Source: a virus | Reading direction: 5' to 3' (one strand) | Virus record (IMG/VR): IMGVR_UViG_3300009103_002187 | Location: 15,765-79,764 of that record | Length of the DNA: 64,000 nucleotides | Part shown: piece by piece, positions 19,722 to 60,596 of the stretch | Numbering within the stretch: the first letter of the stretch is position 1 | Layout: every line of letters begins with the position of its first letter | Notes under the pieces: model-generated | What the model was told of the DNA's origin: nothing | The model's input: the letters and a program-made list of their open reading frames with translations, nothing else | The model's database searches: none | Position numbers and translations under genes: made by a program

Positions 19722-19731
19722 CTTTCTTCTC

Positions 19732-20043: not shown

Positions 20044-20059
20044 AATTCTTTTTCCTACG

Positions 20060-21051: not shown

Positions 21052-21055
21052 GGTC

Positions 21056-21436
21056 TTATCCTTGTTTCTGAGTTCCAGCTTTCATTTTTAAATAAACTTG
21101 TTTCATGGCATTATCAACATCTTCTGGCTTGCGCTGGGCAAGATTTTTTGCATCAAATAGAGCTAAAATCTCTTCAATCATCTTTCGAAATACTGGAAAC
21201 TCTGAAGAAAGTAGGCCTTTAGAAGCAACAATCTGATCTTTGGCCCACATCCCAACTTCCATTCGTGCTGCCATCTTCTCCTTATCTTCCCCTTGACCGG
21301 CTTCTGCAGGTGCTTCAATTCCCTCTGTGGATCCACCGCCTTCAACGTCAGACCCAATGTCTTCTTCGGAGTCTTCATGCAACCTTGTCATCTCTTCTCG
21401 AATAATTCTCTTAAGCTGTCCTTTTGTAACTCTCAT
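21056..21436 (-). CDS. tag-bearing (putative head) protein
   Basis: MRVTKGQLKRIIREEMTRLHE. Confidence 0.7.
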   Translation of the reverse strand: MRVTKGQLKRIIREEMTRLHEDSEEDIGSDVEGGGSTEGIEAPAEAGQGEDKEKMAARMEVGMWAKDQIVASKGLLSSEFPVFRKMIEEILALFDAKNLAQRKPEDVDNAMKQVYLKMKAGTQKQG

Positions 21437-21446
21437 TTTTAAATTC

Positions 21447-22145
21447 CTATTTTAAAGCTTTGGCAATCTTGTCAGCTCTCTTGAAACGCTCATCAATCAC
21501 ACCCCAGTCAAGCTCTTTCATCATAGCATAAATATACGTCTTGCGGTTATTAATATAATCCCTATAATAAGAATGCTCCCAGCAATCTAAGACGATGACA
21601 GGATAAAAACCTGCAGGAAGATTGGAATTATGCAAGTCAACAATACAGTTCACATATGTCTGTAAAAATGTGCTAAACCCGGTCACCACCCAACCATTTC
21701 TTGCAGAAAGTGCACAGGCAATAAAATCCTTCTGCCATCGATCAAATGTTCCAAAGTCTCTCTCTATTCTCATAAATGCGAGAGAATCCATGTTAACCTG
21801 ACTGCGAACATCGCTGATATTAGCAAAGAAGAGCTCGTGCAAGTGAACAGCGTTGAGGTTATAAACCTCATCGATCTTAAGTGATCGATACTGGGAGTGA
21901 TTTAGGCTCGCAGCTTCGCGATCAACAGCATCAAGCTCAGCGCTAATCCGATTCAAAGTTTTAACATACTTCTCATAAAGCGTTTTGTGTGCCTTTTTAT
22001 TCTTCGCACTGAGTAGCTCAGTGGGAAGATCAAATTCCTTGATCTGTGCCACATAGGCCTCATTTAGAGTTTTTTCAGTTTCAGAATCAAGACCTAAGCT
22101 TTCTCTCACCAGGTCTCTAATATCGCCATTTTTTAAACTATCCAT
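21447..22145 (-). CDS. sod: Fe/Mn superoxide dismutase with N-terminal tag
   Basis: H...Y..YV..LN, HLHELFF, DCWEHSYY; N-terminal IRDLVRESL...LNE. Confidence 0.88.
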   Translation of the reverse strand: MDSLKNGDIRDLVRESLGLDSETEKTLNEAYVAQIKEFDLPTELLSAKNKKAHKTLYEKYVKTLNRISAELDAVDREAASLNHSQYRSLKIDEVYNLNAVHLHELFFANISDVRSQVNMDSLAFMRIERDFGTFDRWQKDFIACALSARNGWVVTGFSTFLQTYVNCIVDLHNSNLPAGFYPVIVLDCWEHSYYRDYINNRKTYIYAMMKELDWGVIDERFKRADKIAKALK

Positions 22146-22155
22146 AATTTATAAC

Positions 22156-22620
22156 CTATGTGTCAACTGTATAACGCTGGGAAAGCTCATCTTTGCTCAC
22201 CTCAAAGTCCTTCACGTCACCTGGGCTTCGATCCAGATCTTCTCGGCCAGGAATTGAAGCATCTCGGCCGGTAGCGTCTTTCTCAGGAAGATCATAACCT
22301 CGAAGAACAACCGCGTGACGCTTACTAGGATCAGCGTTTGCATCAATTTGATTTCCCTGGGCATCCAAAAAGCTCACAACTGTGTAAAGCAATTTGGAGT
22401 CATCATCATCTGACTTCTTGCTAGGGTGTTGTTTTAACTTACTCTCGATTCCCAAATCCAATATGTTTACCTCAACTGGGCCTTTTGCCTTATTGTCATC
22501 ATCCTTTGAATCATGATCATCCTCAGACTCATGATGTGCCTCAGTGAGAAATCGTCTAAGCTTTCTCTCATACTGCTCTCTCATCATATTGATGATCTCA
22601 GCTTCAGTTAAAACGGACAT
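22156..22620 (-). CDS. tag-bearing hypothetical protein
   Basis: ERKLRRFLTE; TGATG coupling with the upstream gene. Confidence 0.65.
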   Translation of the reverse strand: MSVLTEAEIINMMREQYERKLRRFLTEAHHESEDDHDSKDDDNKAKGPVEVNILDLGIESKLKQHPSKKSDDDDSKLLYTVVSFLDAQGNQIDANADPSKRHAVVLRGYDLPEKDATGRDASIPGREDLDRSPGDVKDFEVSKDELSQRYTVDT

Positions 22621-25382
22621 CAAGATTCCTCCGAGAGGCCAGCTAATAGCGACCAACGATCTAGTGTTTGATTTGTCTCAGCAATTAAATCTGCCTGATT
22701 ATTCTTGCCAATTCCCTCAGTCATCTCTTTGAACATTGCAACGACGTCAGAAAGATCCAAGTCGATAACAGCGAACTCGCCATATCTCTTGCTCTCAGCT
22801 ATGCTAGCCTTCTTAAGAACTGCCCTAATAGCTTTTCTATTTCCAGGCTTAGTCGCATTCCAAAACTCAGATGCTTTCTTTGACTTAAAGTTTTGCTGCT
22901 GAAAATATCTCTTGGGCTTTTTGCCCTTCTTCATCCAATAGTTTACCGCTCTCTGCACAAGGTATCTAGATTGATCATCATTGAGGCCAGCTTGCTGTAA
23001 TCCATCTAAGACGTTCTTACCCACAAGATAGACGATATCAATAGTGCCTGCATTACCAGCAACACGCTTGTTGGCGCCCTTGATATTCCGTCGAACATCA
23101 GGTTCGTTAGCAACAACACCTGCCTTGGTAAAACCACCGGTATGCATGTTATAAATCTTATCGCGACGCTGACGCTTAAATCGGATCTTAGTGGATTCTG
23201 GGCCATGCTCACCTGATGAGATGTTACCGAGGCTTGTCTGCAGATCATCTGAGTTAACATAGATATCATCATCCATCAAGCTCTTGAGAGACTTAACATA
23301 CGTTGCGCCGCCCTGGCCATATCTTTGTTTTAATCTCTTCGCCGACTTTGACTTGGTCTTCTCAGCGTCCTTTACATAACCTGCAAACGTGTTCTTCTTT
23401 AAAACACGATAGACGTGAGCACCCTCTTCAGCATCAAAGACGCACACCGCGATGGGCCCTTTTCCTTTCGCTGTGTCAACAATTGGAGGGTTAGGATTAA
23501 CGGGAGGCGGTGGAGGTGGATCAACTGGAGGCACTGGAGGCTCCGGTCCTGGACCTGGATCGGGACCTGGATCGGGACCTGGATCGGGACCTGGGTCTGG
23601 ACCTGGGTCTGGATCGTCGTCAATTGGGTCAACGGTGATATCTTCATCGTCACCTTGTTTCTCACCCAATAACTTTAGAGCATCCTGAACCACGCTAAGC
23701 TGTTGAGCTCTAGATTGATGTAATCCAATTCGTCGCATCACTAAGATTAGAATTCCGCCTGCAGCCAAGCCCCAACCAAACGTAGATAAAACTCCTAAAA
23801 TGGCAGCACGCATTAAAAAATCTGGACTAGATTGAATAATTGACTCACCAAAAGTTGTTCCAATAGACTCAATCTGGGGTACACGCTCGGTCATAGAAGT
23901 TGTAAGTGCGTCACCGATCAGCTCTCTGTCAAATTGAAATGCTGACCAATCACCGCCGCCGTCTGGTCCAAAATAATCAGCTACAGTCTGATTTGCATTA
24001 TCTGGATGGGCAGAGAAATCAAAGTGCTCTGCCCACTTCGCCTGAAATTCGCTATCAGAAAGGCGAGAGATATCTGCGTATTCTCCTAAGGGGATATCCA
24101 CACCGCCAGGGGCTTGGGCCAACTCAGCAAACTCGCTCATAGACATATTTTGAACTGCTTCAGGAGAGGTCTCAGATATCCTAGCAACAAATTGCGTTAG
24201 CCCCTCTCCGTCACCCCAATAATACTCAGGGCCGGGGACATTCTGTTCAATAAAACCGGTTACTTCATCGTTAAACACTGTCCACTCTTGATTAATCACA
24301 GAGTCATGATTAAGATTCATCCACTCATTCATCCAAGCTGCAAGACCATCAATAAGGCCTAGCTTGTCAGCAAGAAGACCAATCAGGGGCCCTGACATCA
24401 TAAGTAACGGAGCAAGCTTGCTCCGCATCTTTTTCATCACTGGGGATTCCTTTGATGTGGTACCAAGGTACTTAAACTTTACCCTCTCACCAGTTTTAGG
24501 GTCCTTGTAGCTATTAAGTGCATCTGCTGGCGCCTCTTCCTTTTTTTCACTTAACAAATCATCATTTAAAATCGATATGAGAGAATGAATTTCATGAATC
24601 CTCTGCTCTCTTTTCTCTCTCTCAACAGACTCCTCAACTTTGTAAACTGATGCTAGATCGTAATCTCGATATTGCGCCAGAACCCGGGTTAAAGCAACAG
24701 TCTCAGAATTGAAAATTTGTACAGCAGCAAGATTGTCTTTATCGACACTGTCCTTTCGCTCACGATAAAGTTGATATATCGACCCTAAAACCGCAGAAAA
24801 AACATAGGCATCAGCACCCGTTGTTGCAGCCCTTTGTCCTTCCTTGCCCGCCTTTTTTCTAGGGTCGGAACCTGCGGGTCCCACACCTGTGTCGGCACTT
24901 TCCCCCTCACCTCCAAGACCCTCTGATGCCTGCATGACTTTTTCATAAAAATCAGGAAGGTGAGCTTTTACATCCTTGTTTGTGATGTTTGGAAAGTTAG
25001 CAGTGAGATCATTTCCTTTAATTACAGAAAGTAACTCTTGAAAGTATGCCTCACTGTGCTCCGCCATTATCGCCTGAAATTCTTCTTGTGCCGTGTGAAT
25101 TCTTGCCTTTGATGTCAGCTTTCCCTTCCACTTCTCAAAATTTCCTAGCTTGGCAAGGGTGTCCTTTAAGGGCGCATTCATTCTCTTTATGCCCTTAACA
25201 TACATTCCTTTAAGCTTGGAGCCTAGTTCTCCAAACTTAATCTCATTTATTAACTCATCTAGCTGAGCTTCCGTAATAAGACTATCATCTTCAACTAAAC
25301 CCATTAGAGAATAATTCTTTCGTGAGTACTCTAACAAGGCGAGTTCATTAACTAAAGACATGTTTAATCGCTCCAGTGACAC
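22620..25382 (-). CDS. large putative virion/ejection protein with hydrophobic segments and Pro-rich linker
   Basis: 920 aa; hydrophobic helices, (DPGP)n linker, terminal DRWSLLAGL; ATAATTA at 25393-25399. Confidence 0.65.
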   Translation of the reverse strand: MSLERLNMSLVNELALLEYSRKNYSLMGLVEDDSLITEAQLDELINEIKFGELGSKLKGMYVKGIKRMNAPLKDTLAKLGNFEKWKGKLTSKARIHTAQEEFQAIMAEHSEAYFQELLSVIKGNDLTANFPNITNKDVKAHLPDFYEKVMQASEGLGGEGESADTGVGPAGSDPRKKAGKEGQRAATTGADAYVFSAVLGSIYQLYRERKDSVDKDNLAAVQIFNSETVALTRVLAQYRDYDLASVYKVEESVEREKREQRIHEIHSLISILNDDLLSEKKEEAPADALNSYKDPKTGERVKFKYLGTTSKESPVMKKMRSKLAPLLMMSGPLIGLLADKLGLIDGLAAWMNEWMNLNHDSVINQEWTVFNDEVTGFIEQNVPGPEYYWGDGEGLTQFVARISETSPEAVQNMSMSEFAELAQAPGGVDIPLGEYADISRLSDSEFQAKWAEHFDFSAHPDNANQTVADYFGPDGGGDWSAFQFDRELIGDALTTSMTERVPQIESIGTTFGESIIQSSPDFLMRAAILGVLSTFGWGLAAGGILILVMRRIGLHQSRAQQLSVVQDALKLLGEKQGDDEDITVDPIDDDPDPGPDPGPDPGPDPGPDPGPGPEPPVPPVDPPPPPPVNPNPPIVDTAKGKGPIAVCVFDAEEGAHVYRVLKKNTFAGYVKDAEKTKSKSAKRLKQRYGQGGATYVKSLKSLMDDDIYVNSDDLQTSLGNISSGEHGPESTKIRFKRQRRDKIYNMHTGGFTKAGVVANEPDVRRNIKGANKRVAGNAGTIDIVYLVGKNVLDGLQQAGLNDDQSRYLVQRAVNYWMKKGKKPKRYFQQQNFKSKKASEFWNATKPGNRKAIRAVLKKASIAESKRYGEFAVIDLDLSDVVAMFKEMTEGIGKNNQADLIAETNQTLDRWSLLAGLSEES
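23551..23610. repeat. 12-bp tandem repeat x5 encoding DPGP
   Basis: ggacctggatcg x3 followed by ggacctgggtct x2. Confidence 0.9.
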
Positions 25383-25490
25383 AATCTAGTTATAATTATG
25401 CAGCAAAAGATTAATTTATGGCTTTGATGATATAAGACAGACACTTATTCTTTACAGACAAATCAAGATAATTCTAGCACTTCTATACTG

Positions 25491-25895
25491 CTAAAGTTTA
25501 ATTATTTCAATGCCCGCTTCAGTTAAAATCTCAAGGCTTGATTGATCACGATATTTCTCACCATAAACCACTCGGTCGATTCCAGAGTTAACAATCGCCT
25601 TCGCGCACATCCTGCAAGGTGACAGGGTAACATATAACGTCTTCTTCTTTGGATTGTTGTAATCCATTTTCAGCAAAGCATTTATCTCGGCATGCAGCAT
25701 GCCTGACTCACCGGGCGTCTCTGATTCAACCTCATTTGGGCCACCCTTATAGTTACCGTTGTAACCCACGGCCAGAACCTGGGTATTATCTTCAGTCACA
25801 ACAACAGCACCCACCTGATGTCTGGGATCATATGATCGCCTTGCGATAACCTGTGCACAATTCATCCAGACGTTATTCCAGTCAGGCCTGCTCAT
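25491..25895 (-). CDS. dCMP deaminase
   Basis: VGAV, GYNG, HAE, SPCRMC. Confidence 0.9.
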   Translation of the reverse strand: MSRPDWNNVWMNCAQVIARRSYDPRHQVGAVVVTEDNTQVLAVGYNGNYKGGPNEVESETPGESGMLHAEINALLKMDYNNPKKKTLYVTLSPCRMCAKAIVNSGIDRVVYGEKYRDQSSLEILTEAGIEIIKL

Positions 25896-26808
25896 CTTCC
25901 TTCTTTTCCTTTACAACCTTTGTAGATTTCGAGGTCTTTGCCTTGGTGCTTCTTCTTTTTCTTGTCTTAGGCTTATCAAATAAATCCTCGACATGCTTAT
26001 TCTTTGGAAGCTGGAATCCTGCAGCTTTTTTATGTCCACCCCCGCCAAATCTCTTAGCAATTTCCGACACGTCAACTGTCTCATGAAAGGCCCGAAGGCT
26101 CACCTTTGTCAACTTGTCATCGTGATCCCAATACCAAATCATTGCAAAGTCACAGTCCGGGGCAAGACGAGCTCCGATCTCCGACATCCAGTGGGAGGCA
26201 TTTACAACCATCACATCCATACCGTCAAATTTTCTAAGGGTAGCCTTTTCACAAACTTTCTTTACCACCGTTTTTGAATAAGCAAGAATAAACGAACCTC
26301 GTTTTCTAGCATCGTCAAATACAGAGTCATCTTCAAACTTTTCAAATTCTTCAAATTCAAATGGCACCATATCAAATGCTGCACTAAATTCTTTCGAATA
26401 CTCTAGCTCCCATGTCCAAAGATCACGATCTTGAATGTATCGAATAAATTTAGGCGGCTCTTTCCCAGGATGAAAAAACTCCCAGGAAAGTATTGCTCCG
26501 CTCTTAGTCATATCAAAATGAGTATTTGAAATATCGTGAAGCTCTACCATTGCTGACTTGTGATGATCGATAATCAATAATGCGTCAGCATCCTCAATCA
26601 TCTGCTTAGTTGTTGCATTATCAAATGAAAAATCGAGAATTACAACATTCTTTCCAGATACATCAGGTGGAGGCGTGCCGTGTTTGCAGGCATGATACTC
26701 AGCACGATTTCCAAGCAGCTTCCAAGCAGCATAAGCAGCACCAAAGCCATCGGTACAATCTGCATGATATATCACGCAATTCACGCTTGTTGGTTCAACC
26801 AGAGCCAT
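25882..26808 (-). CDS. DHH/DHHA1 phosphoesterase
   Basis: YHADCTDG, IDHH, SLR, GGGGHKKAAGF. Confidence 0.9.
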   Translation of the reverse strand: MALVEPTSVNCVIYHADCTDGFGAAYAAWKLLGNRAEYHACKHGTPPPDVSGKNVVILDFSFDNATTKQMIEDADALLIIDHHKSAMVELHDISNTHFDMTKSGAILSWEFFHPGKEPPKFIRYIQDRDLWTWELEYSKEFSAAFDMVPFEFEEFEKFEDDSVFDDARKRGSFILAYSKTVVKKVCEKATLRKFDGMDVMVVNASHWMSEIGARLAPDCDFAMIWYWDHDDKLTKVSLRAFHETVDVSEIAKRFGGGGHKKAAGFQLPKNKHVEDLFDKPKTRKRRSTKAKTSKSTKVVKEKKEDEQA

Positions 26809-41135: not shown

Positions 41136-42200
41136 TTACTTGTAATTAAGACAGATAGTTTCTAACAACAGCCTTGTAACCACATAAGGGTCACAATTTG
41201 CATTAGGGCGACGATCTTCTAAATAGCCGCTTTCCTTATTTGCAACTGCCCTTGGAATTCGAATAGACGCAGTCCTATCTGCAATGCCCCAACGAAAATC
41301 CTCATAAGAACAAGTCTCATGTTCACCTGTTAGCCTCAGTTCAATGCCTTCACCATAACCCGAAAGATGAGCTTCAGTTCTACCTTGAAGCTTCTTACAT
41401 GCCTGTTCAATATGACTTAAGCCTCCGGGTTGTCTCATTCTATTTGTGCTAAAGTTAGTATGACATCCAGCACCATTCCAATCTCCCATCATCGGTTTTG
41501 GTTCAAAAGTCACAGTCATTCCAGACTTTTCAGAAATCTTCAAGAGAAGCCAGCGAGAAAGCCAGATTTGATCACTCACATCAACAGCACCGACATTGGG
41601 ACCACCAATCTGATATTCCCATTGTCCTGGCATCACTTCTGCATTTGTTCCAGTGATGTCAAGGCCTGCATGAATACACACATACAGATGATTATCTGAG
41701 ACCTCTCTTCCAAATGCTCGATCACCTCCTGCGCTACAATAATAAATTCCCTGTGGTGACGGATAACCCGTTGGAGGAAAACCTAAAGGGCGTTTATCTT
41801 TGCAAATTGTATACTCTTGTTCTAAACCAAACCACGGATCACTATCACTAGTGTCTGCTGCCACTTGACTCAAAAGTCTTCGATAGTTTGTTTTGTGGGG
41901 AGACCCATCTCCATTTAAGACCTCACACAAAACAATAAAAGCGGTATTATCACCACGAACTGCGTCAGGAATTACCTTTACTGGTGACAGTAAACAATCT
42001 GAATCTCCTCCTGACGCCTGACCTGTTGATGATCCATCGAAGCCCCATTCAGGTAGACATGTATGATCCATGGTCTCTCTAAGGTATTTAAAATCTCCCA
42101 GAGGAAGTGTATGAACACCAATCTTAGATCTTAGTCCCCAGGGAGTAAATCCGTCTATCCAGACATACTCAAGCTTTACTTTGACTAAATTACTATTCAT
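41136..42200 (-). CDS. glnII: glutamine synthetase type II
   Basis: EYVWIDG, LRSK, FDGSST, NAEVMPGQWEYQ, DWNGAGCHTNFS, YLEDRRP. Confidence 0.93.
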   Translation of the reverse strand: MNSNLVKVKLEYVWIDGFTPWGLRSKIGVHTLPLGDFKYLRETMDHTCLPEWGFDGSSTGQASGGDSDCLLSPVKVIPDAVRGDNTAFIVLCEVLNGDGSPHKTNYRRLLSQVAADTSDSDPWFGLEQEYTICKDKRPLGFPPTGYPSPQGIYYCSAGGDRAFGREVSDNHLYVCIHAGLDITGTNAEVMPGQWEYQIGGPNVGAVDVSDQIWLSRWLLLKISEKSGMTVTFEPKPMMGDWNGAGCHTNFSTNRMRQPGGLSHIEQACKKLQGRTEAHLSGYGEGIELRLTGEHETCSYEDFRWGIADRTASIRIPRAVANKESGYLEDRRPNANCDPYVVTRLLLETICLNYK

Positions 42201-47987: not shown

Positions 47988-48314
47988 TTAAAACGAAAAA
48001 GACTCTCCACATCCGCAGCTTCTTTTTGCTGAGGGAATATTAAATTCTAGACCTGATTTAAGAAGGTCTTCCTTGTAGTCTATCTCCATTCCATTAAGAT
48101 AGATGTATGACTTAAGATCAACGCAGAGCTTAACATCATTAAATTCAAAAATCTTATCCTTTTCATCAGGAACAGAGATAAAGCTATAATCAAACATAAA
48201 GCCAGAACAACCTCCTCCTCTGAGGCTGATTTTAAGATAGTCATCAGGAGTTTGACGCTTTCGAAGAAGCCTTGATATATGCTCAACAGCGACATCTGTC
48301 ATTGTTACTGCCAT
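47988..48314 (-). CDS. iscA: A-type Fe-S carrier IscA/HesB
   Basis: GGGCSG and SCGCGESF. Confidence 0.92.
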   Translation of the reverse strand: MAVTMTDVAVEHISRLLRKRQTPDDYLKISLRGGGCSGFMFDYSFISVPDEKDKIFEFNDVKLCVDLKSYIYLNGMEIDYKEDLLKSGLEFNIPSAKRSCGCGESFSF

Positions 48315-48553
48315 TATACCTGTCTCACTTCTTTAACTTCTGGAAATTCTTCTTTAAGCAGGTTCTCAATACCATGCTTAAGTGTAATTATCGACGAGGG
48401 ACATGATCCGCAAGCGCCCTTAAGCCTCAATGATACCACACCCTCATCAAATCCTACAAATTCAAAGTCACCGCCATCACGCTGTAGAAGGGGGCGAACG
48501 CACTCGTCCATTAGCTGTAAAATTTTTGTTTCAATCTCCATTTTATTTTTCAT
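48314..48553 (-). CDS. NifU C-terminal/Nfu Fe-S carrier
   Basis: VRPLLQRDGGD, GACGSCPSS. Confidence 0.9.
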   Translation of the reverse strand: MKNKMEIETKILQLMDECVRPLLQRDGGDFEFVGFDEGVVSLRLKGACGSCPSSIITLKHGIENLLKEEFPEVKEVRQV

Positions 48554-48938
48554 TCTTTTCTCCTAGCTTTTTTCTATAATCAGCAATAGCTGCTTTAATA
48601 GCATCTTCAGCGAGGACAGAGCAGTGAATTTTTACTGGTGGCAAGCTTAATTCCTGAGCAATGTCTGAGTTTTTAATAATTTCAGCTTCGTCAAGTGTCT
48701 TTCCTTTGATCCAAGTAGTTATTAAAGAACTAGAAGCAATTGCTGACCCACACCCAAATGTCTTAAACTTAGCGTCTTCTATAATTCCATCATCGCCTAT
48801 TTTAATTTGAAGCTTCATTACATCACCACATGCAGGTGCGCCCACTAAACCAGTCCCAACAGATAAATCATTTTTATCTAATGCGCCCATGTTCTGGGGA
48901 TTTTCAAAGTGATCAACAACTTTATTAGAATAAGTCAT
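48543..48938 (-). CDS. iscU: Fe-S scaffold IscU
   Basis: GAPACGDVM, KTFGCGSA, LPPVKIHCS. Confidence 0.95.
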   Translation of the reverse strand: MTYSNKVVDHFENPQNMGALDKNDLSVGTGLVGAPACGDVMKLQIKIGDDGIIEDAKFKTFGCGSAIASSSLITTWIKGKTLDEAEIIKNSDIAQELSLPPVKIHCSVLAEDAIKAAIADYRKKLGEKNEK

Positions 48939-49689: not shown

Positions 49690-50637
49690 TTATCTATCGA
49701 GACAGTACATCGTGGAGTTCTTAACTTCATCTAAAAGAGTGGGAAGATCTAAACCAGCACAGTCTTTCTTTGTTTTTGTGAAGTTATAGTGATTACAAAA
49801 ACCATGGAAATTTCCCCTTTCACAATCTTTATGCACACCAGTCTCTATATTCCCGCTTGAATTTTGTGGATACTCCAATGGTATGCCAATCCCAATATGA
49901 ACGGCTTTCCACAAAGCCTTTAGGGCCTCAAGCTGAACGGGATAAAAATCCAAAAATGGATCCAGCGTTCTTCCATGCACGTAACCACGCTCTTGAACAG
50001 GTCTTTCTCCGAATCCATGCCTAACGTACCAGTCTTGATACTTCAAATAATAAGCATTTGAAATCTCTACACCTATCCCCTTGGTGTTACCACCTTCGTA
50101 GCGAGAAATTCCTGCATGCCAAGCCTTGTGCTGTGTATCTAAAAGCTGATAGATTGTTCCGTCATTGTCTATGCAAAAATGCACAGAAACTCCGCGCCTG
50201 TTTAATACCTTTTCACAAGATTCTGCACTTAAACACACATCCCAATGATTGACAAACATAGTTGGTTTTCTATCAGGTTTTCCTGAATAGTCGGTATAAC
50301 ACCCTTTGTTAGATTTTAGCCCATCTTTTTCATCCCAGAGAATCACTTTGTCCCATTCAATAGGGATAAAATTTCCATTATGAACTATGTGCTTGTCACC
50401 ATCTCTATACGAATTTCTTGGTCTTGTAGGCTCGTAATCAGAAATATTTGATTCTCTCTCTGTCCAAATCCTTCGATACGTCATTGGGCCGACCAAGCCA
50501 TCGCCCGTTAATCCGTTAGCTTTTTGCCATTTCTGAACAGCTTTAACCAAGTTAAAATCAAATTCTTCGCAGTTAAACCAGGACGGATCCCATCCCAAAC
50601 TATCAGCACTTGATTTATTATAAAAGTCCTTATCCAA
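49690..50637 (-). CDS. endolysin-like N-acetylmuramoyl-L-alanine amidase with peptidoglycan-binding domain
   Basis: AVQKWQ..GL..DGLVGP.T; VNH, SVHF, AWHAG, GVEI, K.DC. Confidence 0.85.
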   Translation of the reverse strand: MDKDFYNKSSADSLGWDPSWFNCEEFDFNLVKAVQKWQKANGLTGDGLVGPMTYRRIWTERESNISDYEPTRPRNSYRDGDKHIVHNGNFIPIEWDKVILWDEKDGLKSNKGCYTDYSGKPDRKPTMFVNHWDVCLSAESCEKVLNRRGVSVHFCIDNDGTIYQLLDTQHKAWHAGISRYEGGNTKGIGVEISNAYYLKYQDWYVRHGFGERPVQERGYVHGRTLDPFLDFYPVQLEALKALWKAVHIGIGIPLEYPQNSSGNIETGVHKDCERGNFHGFCNHYNFTKTKKDCAGLDLPTLLDEVKNSTMYCLDR

Positions 50638-50654
50638 TCTTTAACCTCCGATTA

Positions 50655-51908
50655 TTAAAACTGTTCAGATTCAGTTGAGTCAGTCAAAGCCAAAGTTGAC
50701 GATTCCCCTCCTGTAATCATATTCTTAACATCATCAAAATAGCCCGTTCCAACTTCTCTCTGATGCCTTGTCGCTGTATAACCTCTATCCTCAGCAACAA
50801 ATTCTTTCTCCTGAAGATCTACATATGCAGACATCCCATTATCTCTGTACTGATCTGCAAGATCAAACATGTTATAATTCAAAGAATGAAAGCCTGCCAA
50901 AGTAATAAACTGAAATTTATATCCCATTTTATTTAGCTCATCTTGAAACTTAGCAATTACATCATCTGTTAGATGCTTTTTCCAGTTAAAAGATGGCGAA
51001 CAGTTATAAGCTAAAATCTTTCCAGGATATTTTTCATGAATAGCGTCAGCAAACTTTTTTGCCTCTTCTAGATCGGGAGTGGAGGTTTCACACCACAATA
51101 AATCAGCATATGGCGCATATTGCAACCCCCGATTAATTGCCATGTCAATTCCTCCAGTAATTCGATAAAAACCCTCAGCTGTCCGATTCTTATCTGTGAT
51201 GAATTGATGATCTTCCTTATCCAGCCCTGTCGTTAATAGTTTTGCACTATTTGCATCTGTTCTTGCAATAATTACTGTGGGAACATCTAAAATATCAGCA
51301 GCTAATCTTGCAGCCTTAAGATTTCTGATAAATGTTGAACCAGGAATTAAAACCTTTCCACCTAAGTGCCCACACTTCTTTTCAGAGCTTAGCTGATCTT
51401 CAAAATGAACACCAGATGCTCCCGACTCTATCATCCCTTTCATTAATTCAAACGCATTCAATGGGCCGCCAAAGCCCGCTTCAGCATCAGCAACGATAGG
51501 CAGCATCCAGTCTCTAGTGATATTTCCTTCGACGCTCTCAACTTGATCTGCTCTTTGTAGAGCTTGATTAATTCTCTTTACAACATGCGGCACACTATTA
51601 GCCGGATATAAACTTTGATCTGGGTACATATGTCCTGAAAGATTTGCATCCGCCGCGACTTGCCATCCACTTAAATAAATTGCTTTCAACCCTGCCCGCG
51701 CCTGTTGCACGCCCTGATTTCCTGTTAATGCCCCTAAGGCAGCAACCCTTTCTGGCTGTTGTAACAATCTCCAGAGTTTTTTTGATCCATTTTTAGCAAT
51801 CGTATGTTCAACTAAAACGCTACCCCTAAGACGATTAACGTCTTCATCTGTCCAATCTCGAGTAATACCGTTCCACCGATTTTCATCGATGTTATCATTA
51901 TCAGCCAT
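50655..51908 (-). CDS. aceA: isocitrate lyase
   Basis: [41 protein letters not shown]. Confidence 0.96.
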
Positions 51909-51919
51909 TATTAGAACTC

Positions 51920-53503
51920 CTAATTTTTGTCTATGTGACTAAACTTTATTTGATCATAAGCTGGCAAGGTTAAAAATTCAGCTAGGTCATTTGAAATAGA
52001 AAGTTCTCTAAACAATTTAATCGCCTGATCATACTTTCCATCATAAAACTTTTCTCTTCCCACTGCTTCTTTAATTTTCTCAACCTCATCCAATAGAATT
52101 TTATCAAATTCTCCAACACTAAACTTTTGATGTCTCAGCCACTGCCATACTTGCGTTCTAGATATCTCAGCAGTTGCGGCATCTTCCATGAGATGATAGA
52201 GTGGAACACAGCCGCTTCCTCGCAGCCACGACTCTAAGTATAAAATTCCTACATTAATATTTTTTCGAAGACCCTCTTCTGTAATTTTTCCCTCGGGTGC
52301 TAAAACTAAATCATTTTGACTAACTGTAAGGTCATTTATCTTGTCAATTTGATTAGGGGTTTTCATATGAGAATCAAAAATTTCCCTAGCTACATGAACC
52401 AAACCAGGATGTGCAACCCACGTTCCATCGTGACCTGCAGTAACTTCACGATATTTGTCTCTTCGAACAGCAGAAATTGCTTTATCATTAGCGTCTGCAT
52501 CATGACGAATAGGAATCTGTGCTGCCATCCCGCCCATAGCATGAATTTCTCGTTTATGACAAGTCTTGATTAACAGCTCACTATATGATTTCATAAACTT
52601 TCTACTCATTGTAACAGACGACCTATCGGGAAGAACTCTATCACTATGTGCCCTTAGAGTTTTGATATAGCTAAAAATATAATCCCATCTTCCACAATTT
52701 AATCCAGCTGAATGATCTCTTAGTTCGTGTAGAATTTCATCCATTTGAAATGCAGCAGGAAGGGTTTCAATTAAAACTGTAGCCCTGATTGTTCCGGGAA
52801 GAATTCCTAGTCTTTCTTGTGACCATATGAAAACATTGTTCCACCATCTTGCTTCTAAATGATGCTGTAATTTGGGTAGATAATAATAAGGACCAGTTCC
52901 TGACTCAATTAAGGTATGAGCATTGTGAAATAAAAATAACCCAAAATCAAAAAGAGAAGCCGGAACTGGAAATCCATCAACTAGAAAATTTTCCTCTTTT
53001 AAGTGTAATCCTCTTGGTCTTACGAAAAGTACGGCGACCTCTTCATTTAACTTATAGGTTCCTTTTGTTGGATGCTCATACGTAATTTCTTTTCGAACAG
53101 CATCCCTTAAGTTTTCTTGACTACTTAAAATGTTATCCCAGGTAGGTGATAAAGAATCTTCAAAATCGGCCATGAAGACATTTGCCCCTGAGTTAAGTGC
53201 ATTGATTACCATCTTTCTATCTGGGGGCCCAGTAATTTCAACCCGACGATCTTGCAAGTCTGAAGGTATCTTAGCAACAGTCCACTCCCCCTCTCTTATT
53301 TCTTTTGTTTCATCTAAAAAATCTGGTATCACACCCGCATCAAACTTAATTTGACGATCTTTTCTAGCAGATATTAAAACATCTAACTGATCACCAAACT
53401 GTCTTGTTAGATCAGAAATAAAAGCAATCGCATCTTTTGTCAGTATAGAAGAATATTGATTCTTACCGTAGTTTATTGTTGTCACGCCTTTCAATGTAGT
53501 CAC
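51920..53503 (-). CDS. aceB: malate synthase A
   Basis: [41 protein letters not shown]. Confidence 0.96.
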
Positions 53504-53505
53504 CT

Positions 53506-54108
53506 TTATTCAAAATCAATTTCTACATTGACTTCTATGTTAAATTTTGGAACTCGTAAATGATTGACTATTCCATGTTTTTTTGCTTCTGCAGCATCCA
53601 TAAACCAATCTGCGTGTTTCTTTGAAAAGACCTTCTTTTTAAAGTAATCATCTTTCTTTCCACAGTTTCTTGCCATCATCGTATAGATCTTTTCATCTAG
53701 ACGTTCAGCTTCCTTAACGTCTGCTTTGAGCTCTTCTATCTTTCCATACATTCCACTAGAAACATCGTGAATCATAATAGTGGCATCAGGATCTGCAAAT
53801 CTCATTCCATCTTCTCCAAAGGTCATAAGAACAGCCCCGCAAGACATCGCTTTTCCCTCTACTATTGTAGCAACTGGTATTTCTGAATGCTTGATGGCAC
53901 TTATCATCGCCATTAGGCTGTAAACTTGTCCGCCGTATGAGTCAATTATTACTGGAATTACTTTTTGCCCAGTGTTATGAGCTAAAGCCATCTGCTCTTG
54001 AAACTCTTTTGCTGACTTTTCATCAAACTTATTTACCCTTACCATTACGGGTGTTTTTCTTAGTTCAACTTCTTTAATTAAAGGTGACACTTTGCTAGTC
54101 CATTTCAT
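53506..54108 (-). CDS. clpP: ClpP-like serine protease
   Basis: IDSYGG, AMSCG, IMIH. Confidence 0.85.
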   Translation of the reverse strand: MKWTSKVSPLIKEVELRKTPVMVRVNKFDEKSAKEFQEQMALAHNTGQKVIPVIIDSYGGQVYSLMAMISAIKHSEIPVATIVEGKAMSCGAVLMTFGEDGMRFADPDATIMIHDVSSGMYGKIEELKADVKEAERLDEKIYTMMARNCGKKDDYFKKKVFSKKHADWFMDAAEAKKHGIVNHLRVPKFNIEVNVEIDFE

Positions 54109-54473
54109 TAATTTTTCCTTCCACAGCCCTTACACAATCTCAAAGTTGTTAGAGGACGAATCCTCTCGAACAGATCATAACATTTACTAAAAAGCCAGTT
54201 AATAATGAAAAGCCTTGAAATCCAAACTAATCTAGAAAAACCTAACTCCTCAAAAACTTTTCTCACTGCTTCATGTCCGGTAAACCACTCGCCTTTAAAG
54301 ACGTGAAGTGTCAGTGTCATATCATCTATTTTCTTTCCTAAAAATTCAGGTCGAAACTTTTCTGAAGAAATATCGACCCACTTTATAACACTTTTCTTAT
54401 CGTGTCTTATTAAAGCATTAGATAGCTTTCGACAGACCCAACAAGATCTGTCGAAAAAAATTGTTAGCTGCAC
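54108..54473 (-). CDS. DCC1/DUF393-like thiol-disulfide oxidoreductase
   Basis: FFDRSCWVC (DxxCxxC). Confidence 0.75.
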   Translation of the reverse strand: MQLTIFFDRSCWVCRKLSNALIRHDKKSVIKWVDISSEKFRPEFLGKKIDDMTLTLHVFKGEWFTGHEAVRKVFEELGFSRLVWISRLFIINWLFSKCYDLFERIRPLTTLRLCKGCGRKN

Positions 54474-56941
54474 TTACTATGACCGCAATTCAAGCAAGAA
54501 ACACACCCTTCTTGATAGCGCAAGGAGTCTTCTGCTTTACATTGCACACAAGTCCTATCTCCTCCAGGGAGCTCACCATTAGCAATATAGTTTTTAATTA
54601 CTCGAGCAATTACCTTTGCAAAAGAGAAAAGATCAGCATCTCGGTCTCCCTTGAGCAACTGTTCACACACATACTTTGCAGGAGCACCATGACGAAGTGC
54701 AAGAGAAATAGTTCTTGTAAAAGATGAATGATTTGGATTGTCAAAAACCTTTACAATATTCTTAATGATAACTTCATCGCCATTTTCTCCAAAACGTAAG
54801 TCATAAATCGAATTCATTGTTTTTCGTGGATGCTTGGTAATAATTCCTTCTTTGTATTTTCTTGGTATCTCAACAAACTCAGCAAGCCCGCCGATGACCT
54901 CATACGGCCTATCATTTAGCAGGCCAACCAGTATGGTCCACTTTTCGCCTTTAATTGAAGCATGATGTATATGACACTTTAAATCTTTTGGTCGTTTAGG
55001 CGCTGAAAGAGATAGAAACTCATCTTCTTCTTTATTCTTGTCAATTAAAACCCCTGATCTAGATCCATCTCGATAAACAGTTACACCCTTGCATCCCATC
55101 TTCCAAGCTTTAACATAAATCTTCTTAACTTCATCAACAGAAGCATCTTTCGGAAGATTAATTGTTGAAGAAATTCCATGATCAATCCATTTTTGAGCAG
55201 CTGCTTGTAAGCTAACTCTCTTATCCCAGTCAATTTCTTCTGCAGACGACTGATAATATGGAGAATCCTCAGGTGCTGTTAGGCCCGTGATGTCCATCCA
55301 CCTTTTAAAGCCATGATGATAAACTGTATGCTCCTGCCATCGATCACCTAAGTCATCAACAAAATCAACCTTTACAGGTTCTGATGACTGACTGATCTTT
55401 CTCCTTCTCGTATACTTCAGCATAAAAACGGGCTCAATTCCCGATGTTGTTTTCGTTAGTGTTGAAACAGAACCGGCAGGTGCTGTTGTTAGAATTGCAA
55501 TGTTTCTCCTTCCTGACTCACTGCTAAGATTTAAAATCCTTCTATCTCCATCCCAAAGTCTTTCAAGAAATGGATGCCCCTTTTCAGACTCATGATCATG
55601 CAAAGGAAAGGCACCTCTTTCTTTAGCCAGAACACAAGATGAATAATATGCATTTAATGCTAGAGTCTTATAAATTTTCTCAACAATTTTAATTGACTTA
55701 TCTGAACCATATCTCACACCTAGTGCAGCTAAAGTATCACCCACAGCAGTTACACCAAGACCTGTTCTCCGTCCACTTAGTGCTTTTTGTCTAATTCTTG
55801 ACCACAGGTTTTTCTCAATTAACTTTACCTCATCAGACTCAGGATCAGAATCAATCTTATGTAAAATCTTGTCGATCTGATCGATTTCGATATCAATCAT
55901 ATCATCCATTAACCGCTGTGCCTTTTGAGTTTTTTCTGAAAAAAGATTAAAGTCAAATTTAGCCTTGTCGCTATAGGGGTTTAAAACAAATGAATTAAGA
56001 TTTAGCAACATCAAACGACATGAATCATACGGTGCTAATGGCAATTCACTGCAAGGATTTGTACTTGTCGTTTTAAAACCTTTATCTTGATACACATCAG
56101 CAGGAGAATTATCAATTACATTATCCCAAAAAATTAATCCTGGTTCAGCAGAATCATGGGCAGCAGAAATTATCTCATCCCAAAGCTCTCGCGCATCAGC
56201 CCAGTCCTCAACAAGATAATTGTCTCCCTTTTCTACGGGAAATCTTAGATGAACATCTTCCTCTTTCTCGACTGCTTGTAAAAATTCATTAGTTAACCTA
56301 ATAGAAATATTTGCACCTGTCACCTTTTTTCGATCACGCTTGATGTTAATAAAATCTCTAATCTGAGGATGATGAACAGAAATTGTCAGCATTAGAGCAC
56401 CACGCCTTCCGCCCTGAGCAACCTCCCTAGTTGAGTTAGAAAATCTTTCCATAAAGATCTCTATTCCATCTGTTGATCTTGCTGCGTTTCCTGTAGACTG
56501 TCCCTTGGGCCGAATAGTTGAAATATCAAATCCAACACCGCCTCTTCTCTTTGCTATCTGTACTAGTTCCTGATCTGACTTTAAAATTCCTCCGTAAGAG
56601 TCACGGGGTGACTCAATTACAAAGCAGTTAGAAATAGACTGAATTTGCTTGTTATTCCCTATGCCCGCCATTGGCGACCCTTGAGGTACAACATAGCGAA
56701 AATCTTTTAAAAGCTCATAAATCTCCTCTTCAGACATGGGATTTTTATATCTTTGTTCAACCTTGCTAAACTCAGAGGCTATCCGACGGTGCATATCGTC
56801 TGGAGTCATCTCTAAAAGATTGCCTTCTCGATCTGTTAGCGCATACTTTGTTGCAAAAACAGTAGCAGCAAGATCATCTCCTGCAAAATACTCTGTTGAT
56901 TTTTTAACAACCTCTTCAAACGTTGTCAATTTACACCTCAC
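54464..56941 (-). CDS. nrdJ: class II (B12-dependent) ribonucleotide reductase
   Basis: SNCFV, GGRRGA, TNPCSE, APAGS, GIEP; C-terminal zinc ribbon; no small subunit in window. Confidence 0.88.
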   Translation of the reverse strand: MRCKLTTFEEVVKKSTEYFAGDDLAATVFATKYALTDREGNLLEMTPDDMHRRIASEFSKVEQRYKNPMSEEEIYELLKDFRYVVPQGSPMAGIGNNKQIQSISNCFVIESPRDSYGGILKSDQELVQIAKRRGGVGFDISTIRPKGQSTGNAARSTDGIEIFMERFSNSTREVAQGGRRGALMLTISVHHPQIRDFINIKRDRKKVTGANISIRLTNEFLQAVEKEEDVHLRFPVEKGDNYLVEDWADARELWDEIISAAHDSAEPGLIFWDNVIDNSPADVYQDKGFKTTSTNPCSELPLAPYDSCRLMLLNLNSFVLNPYSDKAKFDFNLFSEKTQKAQRLMDDMIDIEIDQIDKILHKIDSDPESDEVKLIEKNLWSRIRQKALSGRRTGLGVTAVGDTLAALGVRYGSDKSIKIVEKIYKTLALNAYYSSCVLAKERGAFPLHDHESEKGHPFLERLWDGDRRILNLSSESGRRNIAILTTAPAGSVSTLTKTTSGIEPVFMLKYTRRRKISQSSEPVKVDFVDDLGDRWQEHTVYHHGFKRWMDITGLTAPEDSPYYQSSAEEIDWDKRVSLQAAAQKWIDHGISSTINLPKDASVDEVKKIYVKAWKMGCKGVTVYRDGSRSGVLIDKNKEEDEFLSLSAPKRPKDLKCHIHHASIKGEKWTILVGLLNDRPYEVIGGLAEFVEIPRKYKEGIITKHPRKTMNSIYDLRFGENGDEVIIKNIVKVFDNPNHSSFTRTISLALRHGAPAKYVCEQLLKGDRDADLFSFAKVIARVIKNYIANGELPGGDRTCVQCKAEDSLRYQEGCVSCLNCGHSKCS

Positions 56942-58362
56942 TTTCCAAGGGCTTGTAATTTAGAACTTCCACTTACCTCATTCCACTTTTGTTTTAAAAG
57001 TGCCTTCATTGATGACTCATCTTGTTGAACAACTTCATTTAAAGTCAGCTCAGATTCATCTAACACCTTTAGATAAGATCGAGCAGTGTCCAACTGAATT
57101 GGGAAGACTAAACCATCACGACCTGCTCTATTTTTAGCAATAAACAATCTTCCGGCGCCGGAAGCTTTTTCAAGGGGCTTTCTTGATAGAGATACCACTA
57201 CATCTGCAACCATCGCCTTGCCATAAGCTTCTGACATATTTTCTAATCCTACAATATCTGATTTCGCTGAATCACGGTTTGCTTGAGAGGCAGTCCAAAC
57301 TGGAATCTCTAACTCCATAGCTAGATTTCTTAACTCCTCATAGATTAACTTTAGCTCATGACGCAAAGAATCAAAATTTCTACTAGATCTCATAATATCG
57401 GCGTAGTCTACAATAATCAAGCTAGGCTTAAATGATCTCATCGCCAACTTTTCAATATGACTTCTAATTGTATGAACAGACGCTGATCCTGTGGGATATT
57501 CTTTAATGATCAACTGACCTAGATCACCATCCTCATACCTCTTAAGCACCTTCTCTCTATTGTTAACAATCTCATTGCTAGGAATTTTACAAAAATTAGA
57601 ATCATACCTCAATCCCACAGCTGATTCCGAAAGCTCAAACGTATAATGAACAACATTCTTTCCTAGCTTTAGGGCTTCTGCACCTACGTGTACGAGAAAG
57701 TGTGACTTTCCCACACCAGTATTTGCTGTTACAACACCGATCTCTCCTCTTCCTAGTCCTCCGTTTAAAATATCAGGTCGATCTAACTGACTAATTCCTG
57801 TCGGACAAACTTGTCGGCTCACTTTTGCAAATCTTGCTTCATAATCTTGGAAAAAATCATGACCAATTGAAGTAGGAATTCCAACAGACACTGCAGACTT
57901 CATAACCTCAAGGACACTTTCAAAATTATCTTCAGCAACCATCTCAACTGCTTTTTCAAGTGCATCCTTGAATGCTTGCCTACGACAAAAATCCAAGGAT
58001 CGATCTTTAACAAACTGAAGATCCCCAGCGTTTGAATTTACTCGAAGTCTTTGCAAGAAATCAATAATCTGATTTCTCAAAACAACATCATTTTTATCAA
58101 CAAGGTCATCTCTCACAATCGTTACAAGAATCTGAAGAGATGGAAAGGACTTATACTTCTGATAATAGATAAAATACTTGTCTGTAAGATACGCAAGATA
58201 TCTAAGGTCAAAAAAATCAGGCTTCATCAGCTCAATCATCTGAACGCCCCACTTGTGGTCATTTATCAGGGCTTGAAAGATCTTTTCCTGAAAGCTTTTG
58301 CCGTACTGTCTAAAGTGATGAACTTCTAATTCTGAATTTTGCAAGGGAGCTTGCTGTGTCAT
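56938..58362 (-). CDS. replicative DnaB/gp41-like helicase
   Basis: ANTGVGKS, IIKEYPTG, VDYAD, WTASQANR, KNRAG. Confidence 0.9.
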   Translation of the reverse strand: MTQQAPLQNSELEVHHFRQYGKSFQEKIFQALINDHKWGVQMIELMKPDFFDLRYLAYLTDKYFIYYQKYKSFPSLQILVTIVRDDLVDKNDVVLRNQIIDFLQRLRVNSNAGDLQFVKDRSLDFCRRQAFKDALEKAVEMVAEDNFESVLEVMKSAVSVGIPTSIGHDFFQDYEARFAKVSRQVCPTGISQLDRPDILNGGLGRGEIGVVTANTGVGKSHFLVHVGAEALKLGKNVVHYTFELSESAVGLRYDSNFCKIPSNEIVNNREKVLKRYEDGDLGQLIIKEYPTGSASVHTIRSHIEKLAMRSFKPSLIIVDYADIMRSSRNFDSLRHELKLIYEELRNLAMELEIPVWTASQANRDSAKSDIVGLENMSEAYGKAMVADVVVSLSRKPLEKASGAGRLFIAKNRAGRDGLVFPIQLDTARSYLKVLDESELTLNEVVQQDESSMKALLKQKWNEVSGSSKLQALGK

Positions 58363-58380: not shown

Positions 58381-59334
58381 TTATAGTGCGAAGTTTAGAG
58401 TAAAAAAAAGAGAATTTACATCAAAAGTTGAAAGTCCTTCTCTTGTTAAGATCCTCATCAAGCCAATCTTATTGCGTTGAGGTCGGTAAGTATCAATTGA
58501 ATTATCAATCTTTTCAATTTGTGAAGCTGCCAAATTTGACGTACCTAAGTGCATTAATTTCCAGTTTCTACGAGCGATATCAGCATTCTCACAGATTCTC
58601 TGGAATAGCTTCACTTTACCCGCCTTGACACGTTGCTGACTCAGTTTAATTATATCTTCAACACTCACATGTTCCGGTTCACAAAGTTCAGGGAACCTCC
58701 TTGCCATGGTTTTAAAACCAGCACCTTTTATTCCCGGAATGTTGTCAGAGGTATCCCCACAAAATGACCTTATTGTGCAAAAATTTTCAGGAGATACCAT
58801 GAATCGATCCTGCGCGTCTTCGGCTGTTACATACTTCTTTGAGGTGGGTGAGTAAATTACAACCCTATCACTTAAGAGTTGATAAAAATCCTTGTCAGAA
58901 GACAGAATTACGCATTTCTTCTCCTTTAATTTATAACCCGCCATATAACCGATTACATCATCTGCTTCACAGTCCTTGACGTATACCTGACAAACAGGAA
59001 TATTTTTCAACATTTCAACAAGTAAAGAAACCTGAATATTTTTGTTTTCGACAAGGTCATGTAAATCATTGTCATAAAAACGATTTAACTTGGGAGGTTT
59101 TCGACCCTTTTTATAGTCGGGAAAAAGCGCTCGTCTTCTAGGTGATCCTCCTGCTTCCCAAATCACATAAATTCTCTCAGGATAAATATCATCAACAATT
59201 TTTCTAAGACTACCTAGAAATCCAACTGCACCCCCAACAGGTATTCCTTCTTTATTTAAGGTTGGATTTGCACAAAAATGTCGAGTAAATAGGTTGTAGG
59301 CATCAATTATAAGAACAGGTCTGTCCTTTTTCAC
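58381..59334 (-). CDS. 5'-3' exonuclease / RNase H (FEN family)
   Basis: IIDAYN, YK.GR, EADD, SSDKDF, GDTSDNIPG. Confidence 0.92.
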   Translation of the reverse strand: MKKDRPVLIIDAYNLFTRHFCANPTLNKEGIPVGGAVGFLGSLRKIVDDIYPERIYVIWEAGGSPRRRALFPDYKKGRKPPKLNRFYDNDLHDLVENKNIQVSLLVEMLKNIPVCQVYVKDCEADDVIGYMAGYKLKEKKCVILSSDKDFYQLLSDRVVIYSPTSKKYVTAEDAQDRFMVSPENFCTIRSFCGDTSDNIPGIKGAGFKTMARRFPELCEPEHVSVEDIIKLSQQRVKAGKVKLFQRICENADIARRNWKLMHLGTSNLAASQIEKIDNSIDTYRPQRNKIGLMRILTREGLSTFDVNSLFFTLNFAL

Positions 59335-60509
59335 GGGTCAATATCCAGTGCTGATTCTGTTTCAATCAATAAAGAACGAACCTCTTCATAAGACTCAGGA
59401 TCGATATTATCAAAATTTTCATTAAAATTCTTAATCATTACACGCTCAAGAAGATCATCAATGTACTTTGAATACTGACTGTCGCTCAGAAGCTCATTAA
59501 AATTAGCCTTGTGAAATTTTTTCTCCATTAGCACTTCTCCTGTCTTTACGTCTACGACAGAAAAGGTTTTCCAACTTCCAGTACCCTTAACAGTAATTTC
59601 CTTATCATTGATAATCTCAGGACCATGTTTTCTCAAAACATCAAAGATCTGCTCATGCTCCTTAATTCCCACGCCAAAGTGAATCTCAAAATTAATCTTT
59701 CTAAAAGGAGGCGCAACCTTATTCTTAATCGTTTTAGCAGAGACATGAATTCCAATCACATCTTCGCCATCTTTAATTTGCTGTCCTGCTCCAAGCTTAA
59801 TTCTTGTAGAGGCATGAAATGGAATAGCTTTTCCGCCCGGTGTCGTGTCAGGATCTCCATACATCACCCCAATCTTTGTTCGAATCTGATTAAGAATTAC
59901 AAACAATACATTTTGATTGGCGATAACTCCGGTAATCTTGCGCATCCCTTTTGAAATTGCTCGAGCTTGAAGGCCAATTGATTCCTTGTCATAATCGCCA
60001 ATTAGCTCAGCCTTTGGAGAGCTAGCAGCAACAGAGTCCCAAACAATTGTAATCGGAACATCTTTGTCCATTGCCTTAGCTTTCATGATGGTAGCCTCTG
60101 CAATAGAAAGCACTTCTTCCGTACAATGTGTATCAACGTATACAAACCTCTTAGCAACATCAATTCCTAAAAGACCTAAATTTTCTACACTTGTCGCATT
60201 TTCAGTGTCAATATAAACAACAATCCCACCCATCTGCTGAGTTGTTCTTGCAATCTGTGTAGCAATATGAGACTTACCAATTGACGGCGGCCCAAAAATC
60301 TCAACAATTCTCCCTTCTGGGAGTCCTCCGTCTCTTCGATTAGAACAGATATAATCTAGTAGCTTTGAACCTGTGCTAATCCATCGATTAACATGGGTTG
60401 GAGAAGTATCAACACTTAAGTTATACGCCACTCTCGATCCATGTTCTTTATTGAGAGCTTGGATTAAATCAGAGGTAAAATCCTCCATTCCGTTTGTCTT
60501 TTTAGCCAT
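59331..60509 (-). CDS. recA: RecA/UvsX recombinase
   Basis: ISTGS, GPPSIGKS, DSVAA, NQIR, TTPGGKA. Confidence 0.93.
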   Translation of the reverse strand: MAKKTNGMEDFTSDLIQALNKEHGSRVAYNLSVDTSPTHVNRWISTGSKLLDYICSNRRDGGLPEGRIVEIFGPPSIGKSHIATQIARTTQQMGGIVVYIDTENATSVENLGLLGIDVAKRFVYVDTHCTEEVLSIAEATIMKAKAMDKDVPITIVWDSVAASSPKAELIGDYDKESIGLQARAISKGMRKITGVIANQNVLFVILNQIRTKIGVMYGDPDTTPGGKAIPFHASTRIKLGAGQQIKDGEDVIGIHVSAKTIKNKVAPPFRKINFEIHFGVGIKEHEQIFDVLRKHGPEIINDKEITVKGTGSWKTFSVVDVKTGEVLMEKKFHKANFNELLSDSQYSKYIDDLLERVMIKNFNENFDNIDPESYEEVRSLLIETESALDIDP

Positions 60510-60561
60510 GTTCTATCCTCTTAGAGAATAATACATCATTAAGACAAATCTGTTCAAGCAT

Positions 60562-60596
60562 AAAAATAAAAAGCAGGAGCGAAATGCTCCTGCTTT
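60562..60596 (-). terminator. rho-independent terminator after the SSB gene
   Basis: aaagcaggagc/gctcctgcttt stem with T-tract on the - strand. Confidence 0.85.

Follow-up and report, generated by a model that had tools for sequence, protein, structure and literature searches.

The locus considered here encodes the two enzymes that make up the glyoxylate shunt, malate synthase A (AceB) and isocitrate lyase (AceA). It lies in the IMG/VR virus record IMGVR_UViG_3300009103_002187, of which positions 15,765 to 79,764, a stretch of 64,000 nucleotides, are referred to as the window; coordinates are those of the window unless another record is named. The two genes are as follows:

51920-53503, minus strand: aceB, malate synthase A, 527 amino acids (TIGR01344 and three Pfam domains)
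50655-51908, minus strand: aceA, isocitrate lyase (ICL), 417 amino acids (NF011645 and the Pfam ICL family, PF00463)

We consider it likely that the window belongs to a phage genome in which aceB and aceA form a competent auxiliary metabolic pair, co-transcribed, giving a net gain of four-carbon (C4) compounds and descending from a single old capture.

Identity and integrity of the two enzymes

Profile scores leave little ambiguity as to the identity of either protein. AceA reaches 738.6 bits against the isocitrate lyase equivalog NF011645 (cut-off 562, NCBIfam whole-protein scoring) and 577.7 bits against TIGR01346 (cut-off 275.9), and AceB reaches 760.8 bits against the malate synthase A model TIGR01344 (cut-off 594.5), with its MS_N, MS_TIM-barrel and MS_C domains (PF20656, PF01274 and PF20659) each above the gathering score. 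Methylisocitrate lyase, PrpB, is ruled out for AceA (100.9 and 80.2 bits with the PrpB models, the cut-offs of which are about 354), as is malate synthase isoform G for AceB (22.8 and 18.9 bits with the G models, against cut-offs of 565 and 989).

No internal stop codon was found in the reading frame of either gene, and the residues on which catalysis is expected to depend are present. AceA aligns over its full length with solved isocitrate lyases (residues 8-417 with PDB 7cmx), with the KKCGH signature intact; this catalytic-loop signature, with its active-site Cys, is kept in all 24 viral AceA sequences compared. Residues 7-517 and 9-517 of AceB align with PDB 3cux and 3cuz, the B. anthracis and E. 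coli structures, respectively. In the 3cuz alignment, the chain numbering of which is the native numbering minus 1, AceB is identical to the E. coli enzyme at all four of the positions R166, E250, D278 and D447, which supply the Arg and Asp residues used in catalysis and bind Mg2+. Nearly all of 26 viral AceB sequences likewise keep the R.RG.H and CGRWDY motifs. Judged by these features, both enzymes look catalytically competent. Neither protein has a strict match to the 'LRxLIxEE' cargo tag or an N-terminal extension.

At the nucleotide level, aceA is preceded by an AGGAG Shine-Dalgarno sequence, whereas the start of aceB is ambiguous, being either GTG at 53503 or TTG at 53494, the latter preceded by AAGGTG. 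The GC content at third codon positions of the two genes (0.25-0.30) is like that of the adjacent genes, and the cosine of their codon usage to that of the contig is 0.945. The genes lie on the same strand, with 2 nt between clpP and aceB, 11 nt between aceB and aceA, and 17 nt between aceA and an amidase gene; the original prediction of an intact pair, flanked by ribonucleotide reductase (RNR) and ClpP genes on one side and the amidase gene on the other with gaps of 2-17 nt, is thus exact as to both coordinates and spacing.

Gene order, domain architecture and catalytic residues are all as in bacterial aceBA (E. coli; 3cuz, 3cux, 7cmx and 1igw). The spacing differs, the 11 nt between aceB and aceA comparing with about 70-180 nt in the sampled cellular loci, as does the setting, in that the viral pair, unlike bacterial aceBA, is embedded among phage replication genes and its proteins stand apart from those of 80 sampled species. 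An aceK gene is not annotated in the window and no iclR-type regulator was seen beside the pair, although no search was aimed at either.

Viral context and probable history of the cassette

The record is a single 79,764-bp contig without a terminal repeat, classed as a virus in IMG/VR and rated as 27% complete by CheckV, which corresponds to a full genome of about 295 kb. The fragment encodes DnaE, DnaB, RecA, a flap-endonuclease (FEN)-type exonuclease, a gp32-like single-stranded DNA-binding protein, an ATP-dependent ligase, the RNR NrdJ and ThyX, together with thymidine kinase, GroEL, a sigma factor, IscU/IscA and an endolysin-like amidase, and almost all of these genes lie on one strand.

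The most informative comparison is with IMGVR_UViG_3300030329_006583 (here G004), with which 49 of the 124 open reading frames (ORFs) of the fragment are colinear; another 56 are colinear with a 69.9-kb record (G001). G004 (267,118 bp, GC 40%, 107 of 109 large ORFs on one strand) has a large terminase (TerL) gene adjoining a portal gene, and encodes a major capsid protein of the T4 gp23 type (215 bits), a family that was matched in none of 14 control cellular genomes. For its TerL, identity is 42-44% with the proteins of Flavobacterium phage immuto and Microcystis phage Mel-JY01, and about 32-34% with those of T4-like cyanophages and pelagiphages. Because the ends of the G004 contig split the conserved clpP|aceB junction, with aceB at the contig end (265581-267110) and clpP at the start (107-706), we read it as a circularly permuted and probably near-complete genome of about 267 kb, though it is classed as linear and 78% complete. 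The 79.8-kb fragment itself lacks recognisable structural genes, and its viral identity is therefore established through the colinear G004. We conclude that the window comes from an uncultured marine phage that is tailed, probably huge and a distant relative of T4, and the whole genome of which probably measures about 270-300 kb. The description of this DNA as phage-like in the original prediction is borne out by the IMG/VR record and by the 267-kb relative with its gp23-type capsid, portal and TerL genes.

Several large ORFs of the fragment have no match in PHROGs or Pfam (853, 470, 353, 388 and 920 amino acids in the window; 1531, 479 and 373 amino acids upstream of it). Homologues of several of the long orphan ORFs (window 12000-26000; L002 1-7749) are present at 242-246 kb in G004, far from its capsid/terminase module. 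No tRNA gene was found on the contig. No host was called, the phages with neighbouring TerL sequences, which infect Flavobacterium and Microcystis, being only 42-44% identical in this protein.

The cassette recurs. One scan of IMG/VR gave 25 contigs with an AceB 52-69% identical to that of the window, 23 of which also encode AceA; the search of viral databases that had been proposed for the aceA and aceB pair thus returned 23 paired loci, with the order aceB then aceA in 22 of them. The block recA-exonuclease-dnaB-nrdJ-clpP-aceB-aceA is common to about 14 contigs from other samples, clpP adjoins aceB in 14 related loci and in G004, and homologues of the amidase, 65-82% identical, occur in nine related viral loci. 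In G001 (7123-11490) the amidase gene stands between clpP and aceB, whereas in the window (49690-54108) it follows aceA; gene order next to the cassette has thus been rearranged locally.

Parts of the stretch are present in public marine or seawater metagenomes of seven studies. Contigs of run X1, possibly the source sample, span all three junctions, and contigs from an independent study span clpP|aceB (53333-53592) and aceA|amidase (50522-50898) with 0 differences. For aceB|aceA, no independent bridging was found among the contig pieces listed for runs X3-X5, and only X1 spans it.

Phylogenetic analysis places the viral enzymes apart from cellular ones. A maximum likelihood tree of AceB was made with 25 viral and 80 named bacterial sequences, the cellular sample being the 80 best pattern-matched GTDB species among the matches listed. 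All of the viral AceB sequences fall on one side of a single branch, with a support of 100 in the Shimodaira-Hasegawa-like approximate likelihood ratio test (SH-aLRT). With the 119 nearest proteins from a collection of 5.8 billion added, the viral AceB clade came to comprise 67 rows with no named cellular sequence inside it, and no supported cellular sister to it was found in that tree. Viral AceA is likewise separated from the sampled cellular homologues (SH-aLRT 97), in a clade that includes the ICL of phage C48C1, considered below. The best cellular identities of AceB among the matches listed are 56-63%, to proteins of Myxococcota, Acidobacteriota, Alphaproteobacteria, Planctomycetota and Bacteroidota. 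Phylogeny had been put forward as a means of finding both donor and host; it resolved distinct viral clades, but assigned neither.

Where synonymous sites are unsaturated, the ratio of nonsynonymous to synonymous substitution rates (dN/dS) is 0.035-0.11, and the synteny of the cassette persists at 52-69% protein identity. By these measures aceBA is maintained under strong purifying selection in viral genomes and is no transient passenger. Because the viral sequences form their own clades and dN/dS is low, we favour a single old capture and long viral residence, i.e. a bacterial aceBA operon was probably captured once and then inherited and exchanged among marine phages. Between G004 and the window, AceB is 52% and AceA 69% identical, while the flanking syntenic genes are 64-72% identical, and the G004 AceB sits in another viral subclade than that of the window; aceB of G004 may have been replaced by a copy from another phage.

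The surrounding gene string and the proposed role

The pair occupies the seventh and eighth places in a string that runs recA, exonuclease, dnaB, nrdJ, DCC1-like, clpP, aceB, aceA, amidase. The elements around it, in the direction of the string, are:

60570-60596, minus strand: terminator-like hairpin with an 11-bp stem and a T-run, upstream of recA (pattern match only)
60528-60557, minus strand: promoter-like TTGAAC-18-TATTAT, after the hairpin and upstream of recA (consensus scan only)
59331-60509, minus strand: RecA, head of the co-directional string (Pfam)
58381-59334, minus strand: 5'-3' exonuclease (Pfam)
56938-58362, minus strand: DnaB-like helicase (Pfam)
54464-56941, minus strand: NrdJ, adenosylcobalamin-dependent class II RNR (TIGR02504, 503 bits; cut-off 399.95)
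54108-54473, minus strand: DCC1-like thiol-disulfide oxidoreductase (Pfam PF04134, 65 bits)
53506-54108, minus strand: ClpP-family protease, 2 nt upstream of aceB (Pfam CLP_protease)
49690-50637, minus strand: peptidoglycan amidase, endolysin-like, 17 nt downstream of aceA (Pfam Amidase_2 and PG_binding_1)
48543-48938, minus strand: IscU/NifU_N iron-sulfur (Fe-S) assembly gene, downstream of the aceBA string (Pfam NifU_N, 176.7 bits)
47988-48314, minus strand: IscA-type Fe-S assembly gene (Pfam Fe-S_biosyn, 66.4 bits)

The recA, exonuclease and dnaB genes overlap or stand no more than 18 nt apart, and no convincing terminator was seen between the start of the string and the amidase gene. The hairpin and promoter-like pair before recA may mark the start of a transcription unit; in the sigma-70 promoter scan, predicted sites were no more numerous than in shuffled controls. 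About 1.7 kb separates the cassette from the IscU and IscA genes downstream, which have homologues in G004 and in several loci with aceBA.

Two proteins of the string merit separate comment. The ClpP-family protein (53506-54108) falls below the curated cut-offs of the cellular ClpP models and of the model for the ClpP-related head-maturation protease, and may be either a metabolic ClpP or the prohead protease. The NrdJ ORF of G004 (721-4116, minus strand) encodes 1131 amino acids, compared with 825 in the window, and only 529 residues aligned in one piece; the greater length suggests an inserted element, possibly an intein.

With regard to function, aceB and aceA would most likely be expressed in infected cells from the same transcript as the replication and nucleotide genes. 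Isocitrate lyase would then divert host isocitrate from the two CO2-releasing steps of the tricarboxylic acid (TCA) cycle, and the glyoxylate so formed would be joined to acetyl-CoA by malate synthase. Only these two branch-point enzymes would come from the phage, with citrate synthase, aconitase and the remaining TCA cycle enzymes provided by the host; in keeping with such a division, none of citrate synthase, aconitase, isocitrate dehydrogenase or an AMP-binding (acyl/acetyl-CoA) ligase was found in five phage records (beta-oxidation genes were not searched for). The outcome would be a net C4 gain, with succinate and malate feeding oxaloacetate, aspartate and phosphoenolpyruvate and, from these, nucleotide and biomass precursors, along with a lower yield of NADH. 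The identity and intactness of the genes, their viral context, their conservation and the selection on them are shown, whereas co-transcription, activity, the direction of flux and the fitness benefit are inferred. The proposal that lipid or acetate carbon is redirected toward nucleotide synthesis, made in the original prediction, is plausible in that it would fit the nucleotide-metabolism neighbourhood of the pair, although a ligase of the acetyl-CoA synthetase type was not found in the five records. Of the host TCA genes, aceA and aceB showed the strongest induction in one marine virocell (PMC7082346).

Earlier reports and competing explanations

Although the original prediction held that both genes together are rarely reported in bacteriophages, this view is out of date, given three earlier reports and the 25 IMG/VR contigs. 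Pacific Ocean viromes yielded both aceA and aceB in 2013 (PMC4053976). An aceBA operon was described in 2017 in the complete 179-kb marine viral genome TARA_ERS478052_N000008, which has T4-like structural genes (Nishimura et al., PMC5332604). A 2025 preprint reports ICL in 98 huge phages, 22 of which, marine ones included, carry both genes, adjacent in 20 (bioRxiv 10.1101/2025.02.27.640493). Phage aceB and aceA side by side are, therefore, already published, and the window is a well-supported further example and no discovery.

TARA_ERS478052_N000008, compared by description only, resembles the window in being an uncultured marine phage with adjacent aceB and aceA genes that are read as an auxiliary metabolic pair, but at 179 kb is smaller than the roughly 270-300 kb estimated for the window phage. 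Its authors favoured a role in lysogeny, whereas in the present record a search for a tyrosine integrase gave nothing and aceB and aceA stand in a replication and nucleotide string. The collection of the preprint, which is a structural-clustering catalogue without phylogeny, synteny or selection analysis, also reports glutamine synthetase; the window has a glutamine-synthetase-like gene (Gln-synt_C and Gln-synt_N domains; 41136-42200, minus strand), homologues of which, 41-72% identical, occur in six related loci.

Among the true phages of INPHARED, only C48C1 (OQ984149.1, Kyanoviridae, 156 kb) has an ICL homologue, and malate synthase was found in none. The C48C1 protein (CDS0055, 7992-9233, annotated as 'hypothetical protein') is 56% identical to AceA of the window and groups within the viral clade of AceA; near it are genes for DnaB, a NifU-like protein and an endolysin, as around the cassette in the window, but the genome is smaller and cyanophage-like, and has no malate synthase. 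The other INPHARED aceBA 'phage' hits were rejected as bacterial DNA, being either 501-kb Salmonella contigs or unannotated pieces of 1.5-4.5 kb with enterobacterial aceBA. Records of this type (AFYI01000007.1, AGRM01000005.1, OR845679.1, OR850939.1, OR845746.1 and OR851757.1) give false 'phage' hits for metabolic genes.

Several points weigh against the reading of the locus as a functional phage shunt. On the 79.8-kb fragment, PHROGs and Pfam (PF03237 for the terminase) recognise no gene for a terminase, portal or capsid protein, such that the case for a virus depends on the synteny with G004, on its class in IMG/VR and on the gp32-like protein. The host may already have a shunt of its own, and without an aceK-like control of host isocitrate dehydrogenase the division of flux at isocitrate would be uncertain. 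The promoter and terminator were called by match to a consensus, in numbers not above those of shuffled controls, expression and enzyme activity are predicted from the genes themselves, and sampling of the true donor lineage could break the monophyly of the viral enzymes.

How far these points favour other explanations varies. That the contig is cellular, or a chimera of bacterial aceBA and phage DNA, would fit the lack of a recognisable structural gene and the 56-63% identity of the enzymes to bacterial ones. This explanation is effectively refuted, because the synteny recurs, both with the TerL-, portal- and gp23-bearing G004 and at the same junctions in about 14 contigs from other samples, because contigs of an independent study bridge two of the three junctions with 0 mismatches, and because the viral sequences form their own clades and match neighbouring genes in codon usage; the original prediction, which had itself raised the prospect of a chimeric or cellular contig, survives on this count. 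The proposal of Nishimura et al. for TARA_ERS478052_N000008 (PMC5332604), applied to the window, would make aceBA a factor in lysogenic conversion or host fitness, aiding a host that carries the phage as a prophage or in pseudolysogeny. We regard this as very unlikely: no tyrosine integrase was found in the fragment or in four related records, including those of 267 kb and 202 kb (the search did not extend to serine integrases or partition genes), the genes lie inside the replication and nucleotide string rather than in a moron-like island, and the structural genes are T4-like, T4-like phages being typically lytic.

A more serious alternative accepts the same enzymes, but places them in a programme that would spare iron and relieve redox load in the infected cell, rather than seeing them as a device for carbon gain. 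Bypassing NADH-generating steps would lessen the load on the iron-rich complex I and the formation of reactive oxygen species, an end that the Fe-S scaffold genes, the iron-free B12-dependent RNR and the thiol oxidoreductase would also serve. The proximity of the IscU and IscA genes to the cassette, the presence of the cobalamin-dependent NrdJ and the DCC1-like oxidoreductase in the same string, the recurrence of IscU/IscA homologues in aceBA-bearing loci and in G004, and the NifU-like gene about 3 kb from the ICL of the aceA-bearing C48C1 are all consistent with this role, as is the raising of the shunt by marine heterotrophs under iron limitation (PMC11069385 and references it cites). On the other side, marine phages often have Fe-S scaffold genes and class II RNRs, with or without aceBA, so the linkage may be coincidental, and the two roles are mutually compatible. 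An iron/redox role fits the neighbouring genes equally well as one in carbon gain, but as a replacement for the latter we think it improbable. The same doubt attaches to a broader version, in which one ancient aceBA capture would have been traded among several large marine phage backbones, one descendant being a cyanophage-like Kyanoviridae genome that keeps only aceA, and would here have come to sit in an iron/redox-sparing module, its main benefit being relief of the infected cell when iron or oxidative stress is limiting, rather than carbon gain.

A competent, co-transcribed pair giving a net C4 gain thus remains the likely reading. To the earlier reports, the present results add, modestly, that both viral enzymes are monophyletic in the trees made, that they are under strong purifying selection and that the clpP-aceB-aceA arrangement is kept across deep divergence; the finding opens no new question. 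Its meaning for marine systems is that, through phage shunt genes, some infected bacteria may respire less carbon to CO2 and send more into phage progeny, a possibility that matters for modelling how carbon flows through the viral shunt.

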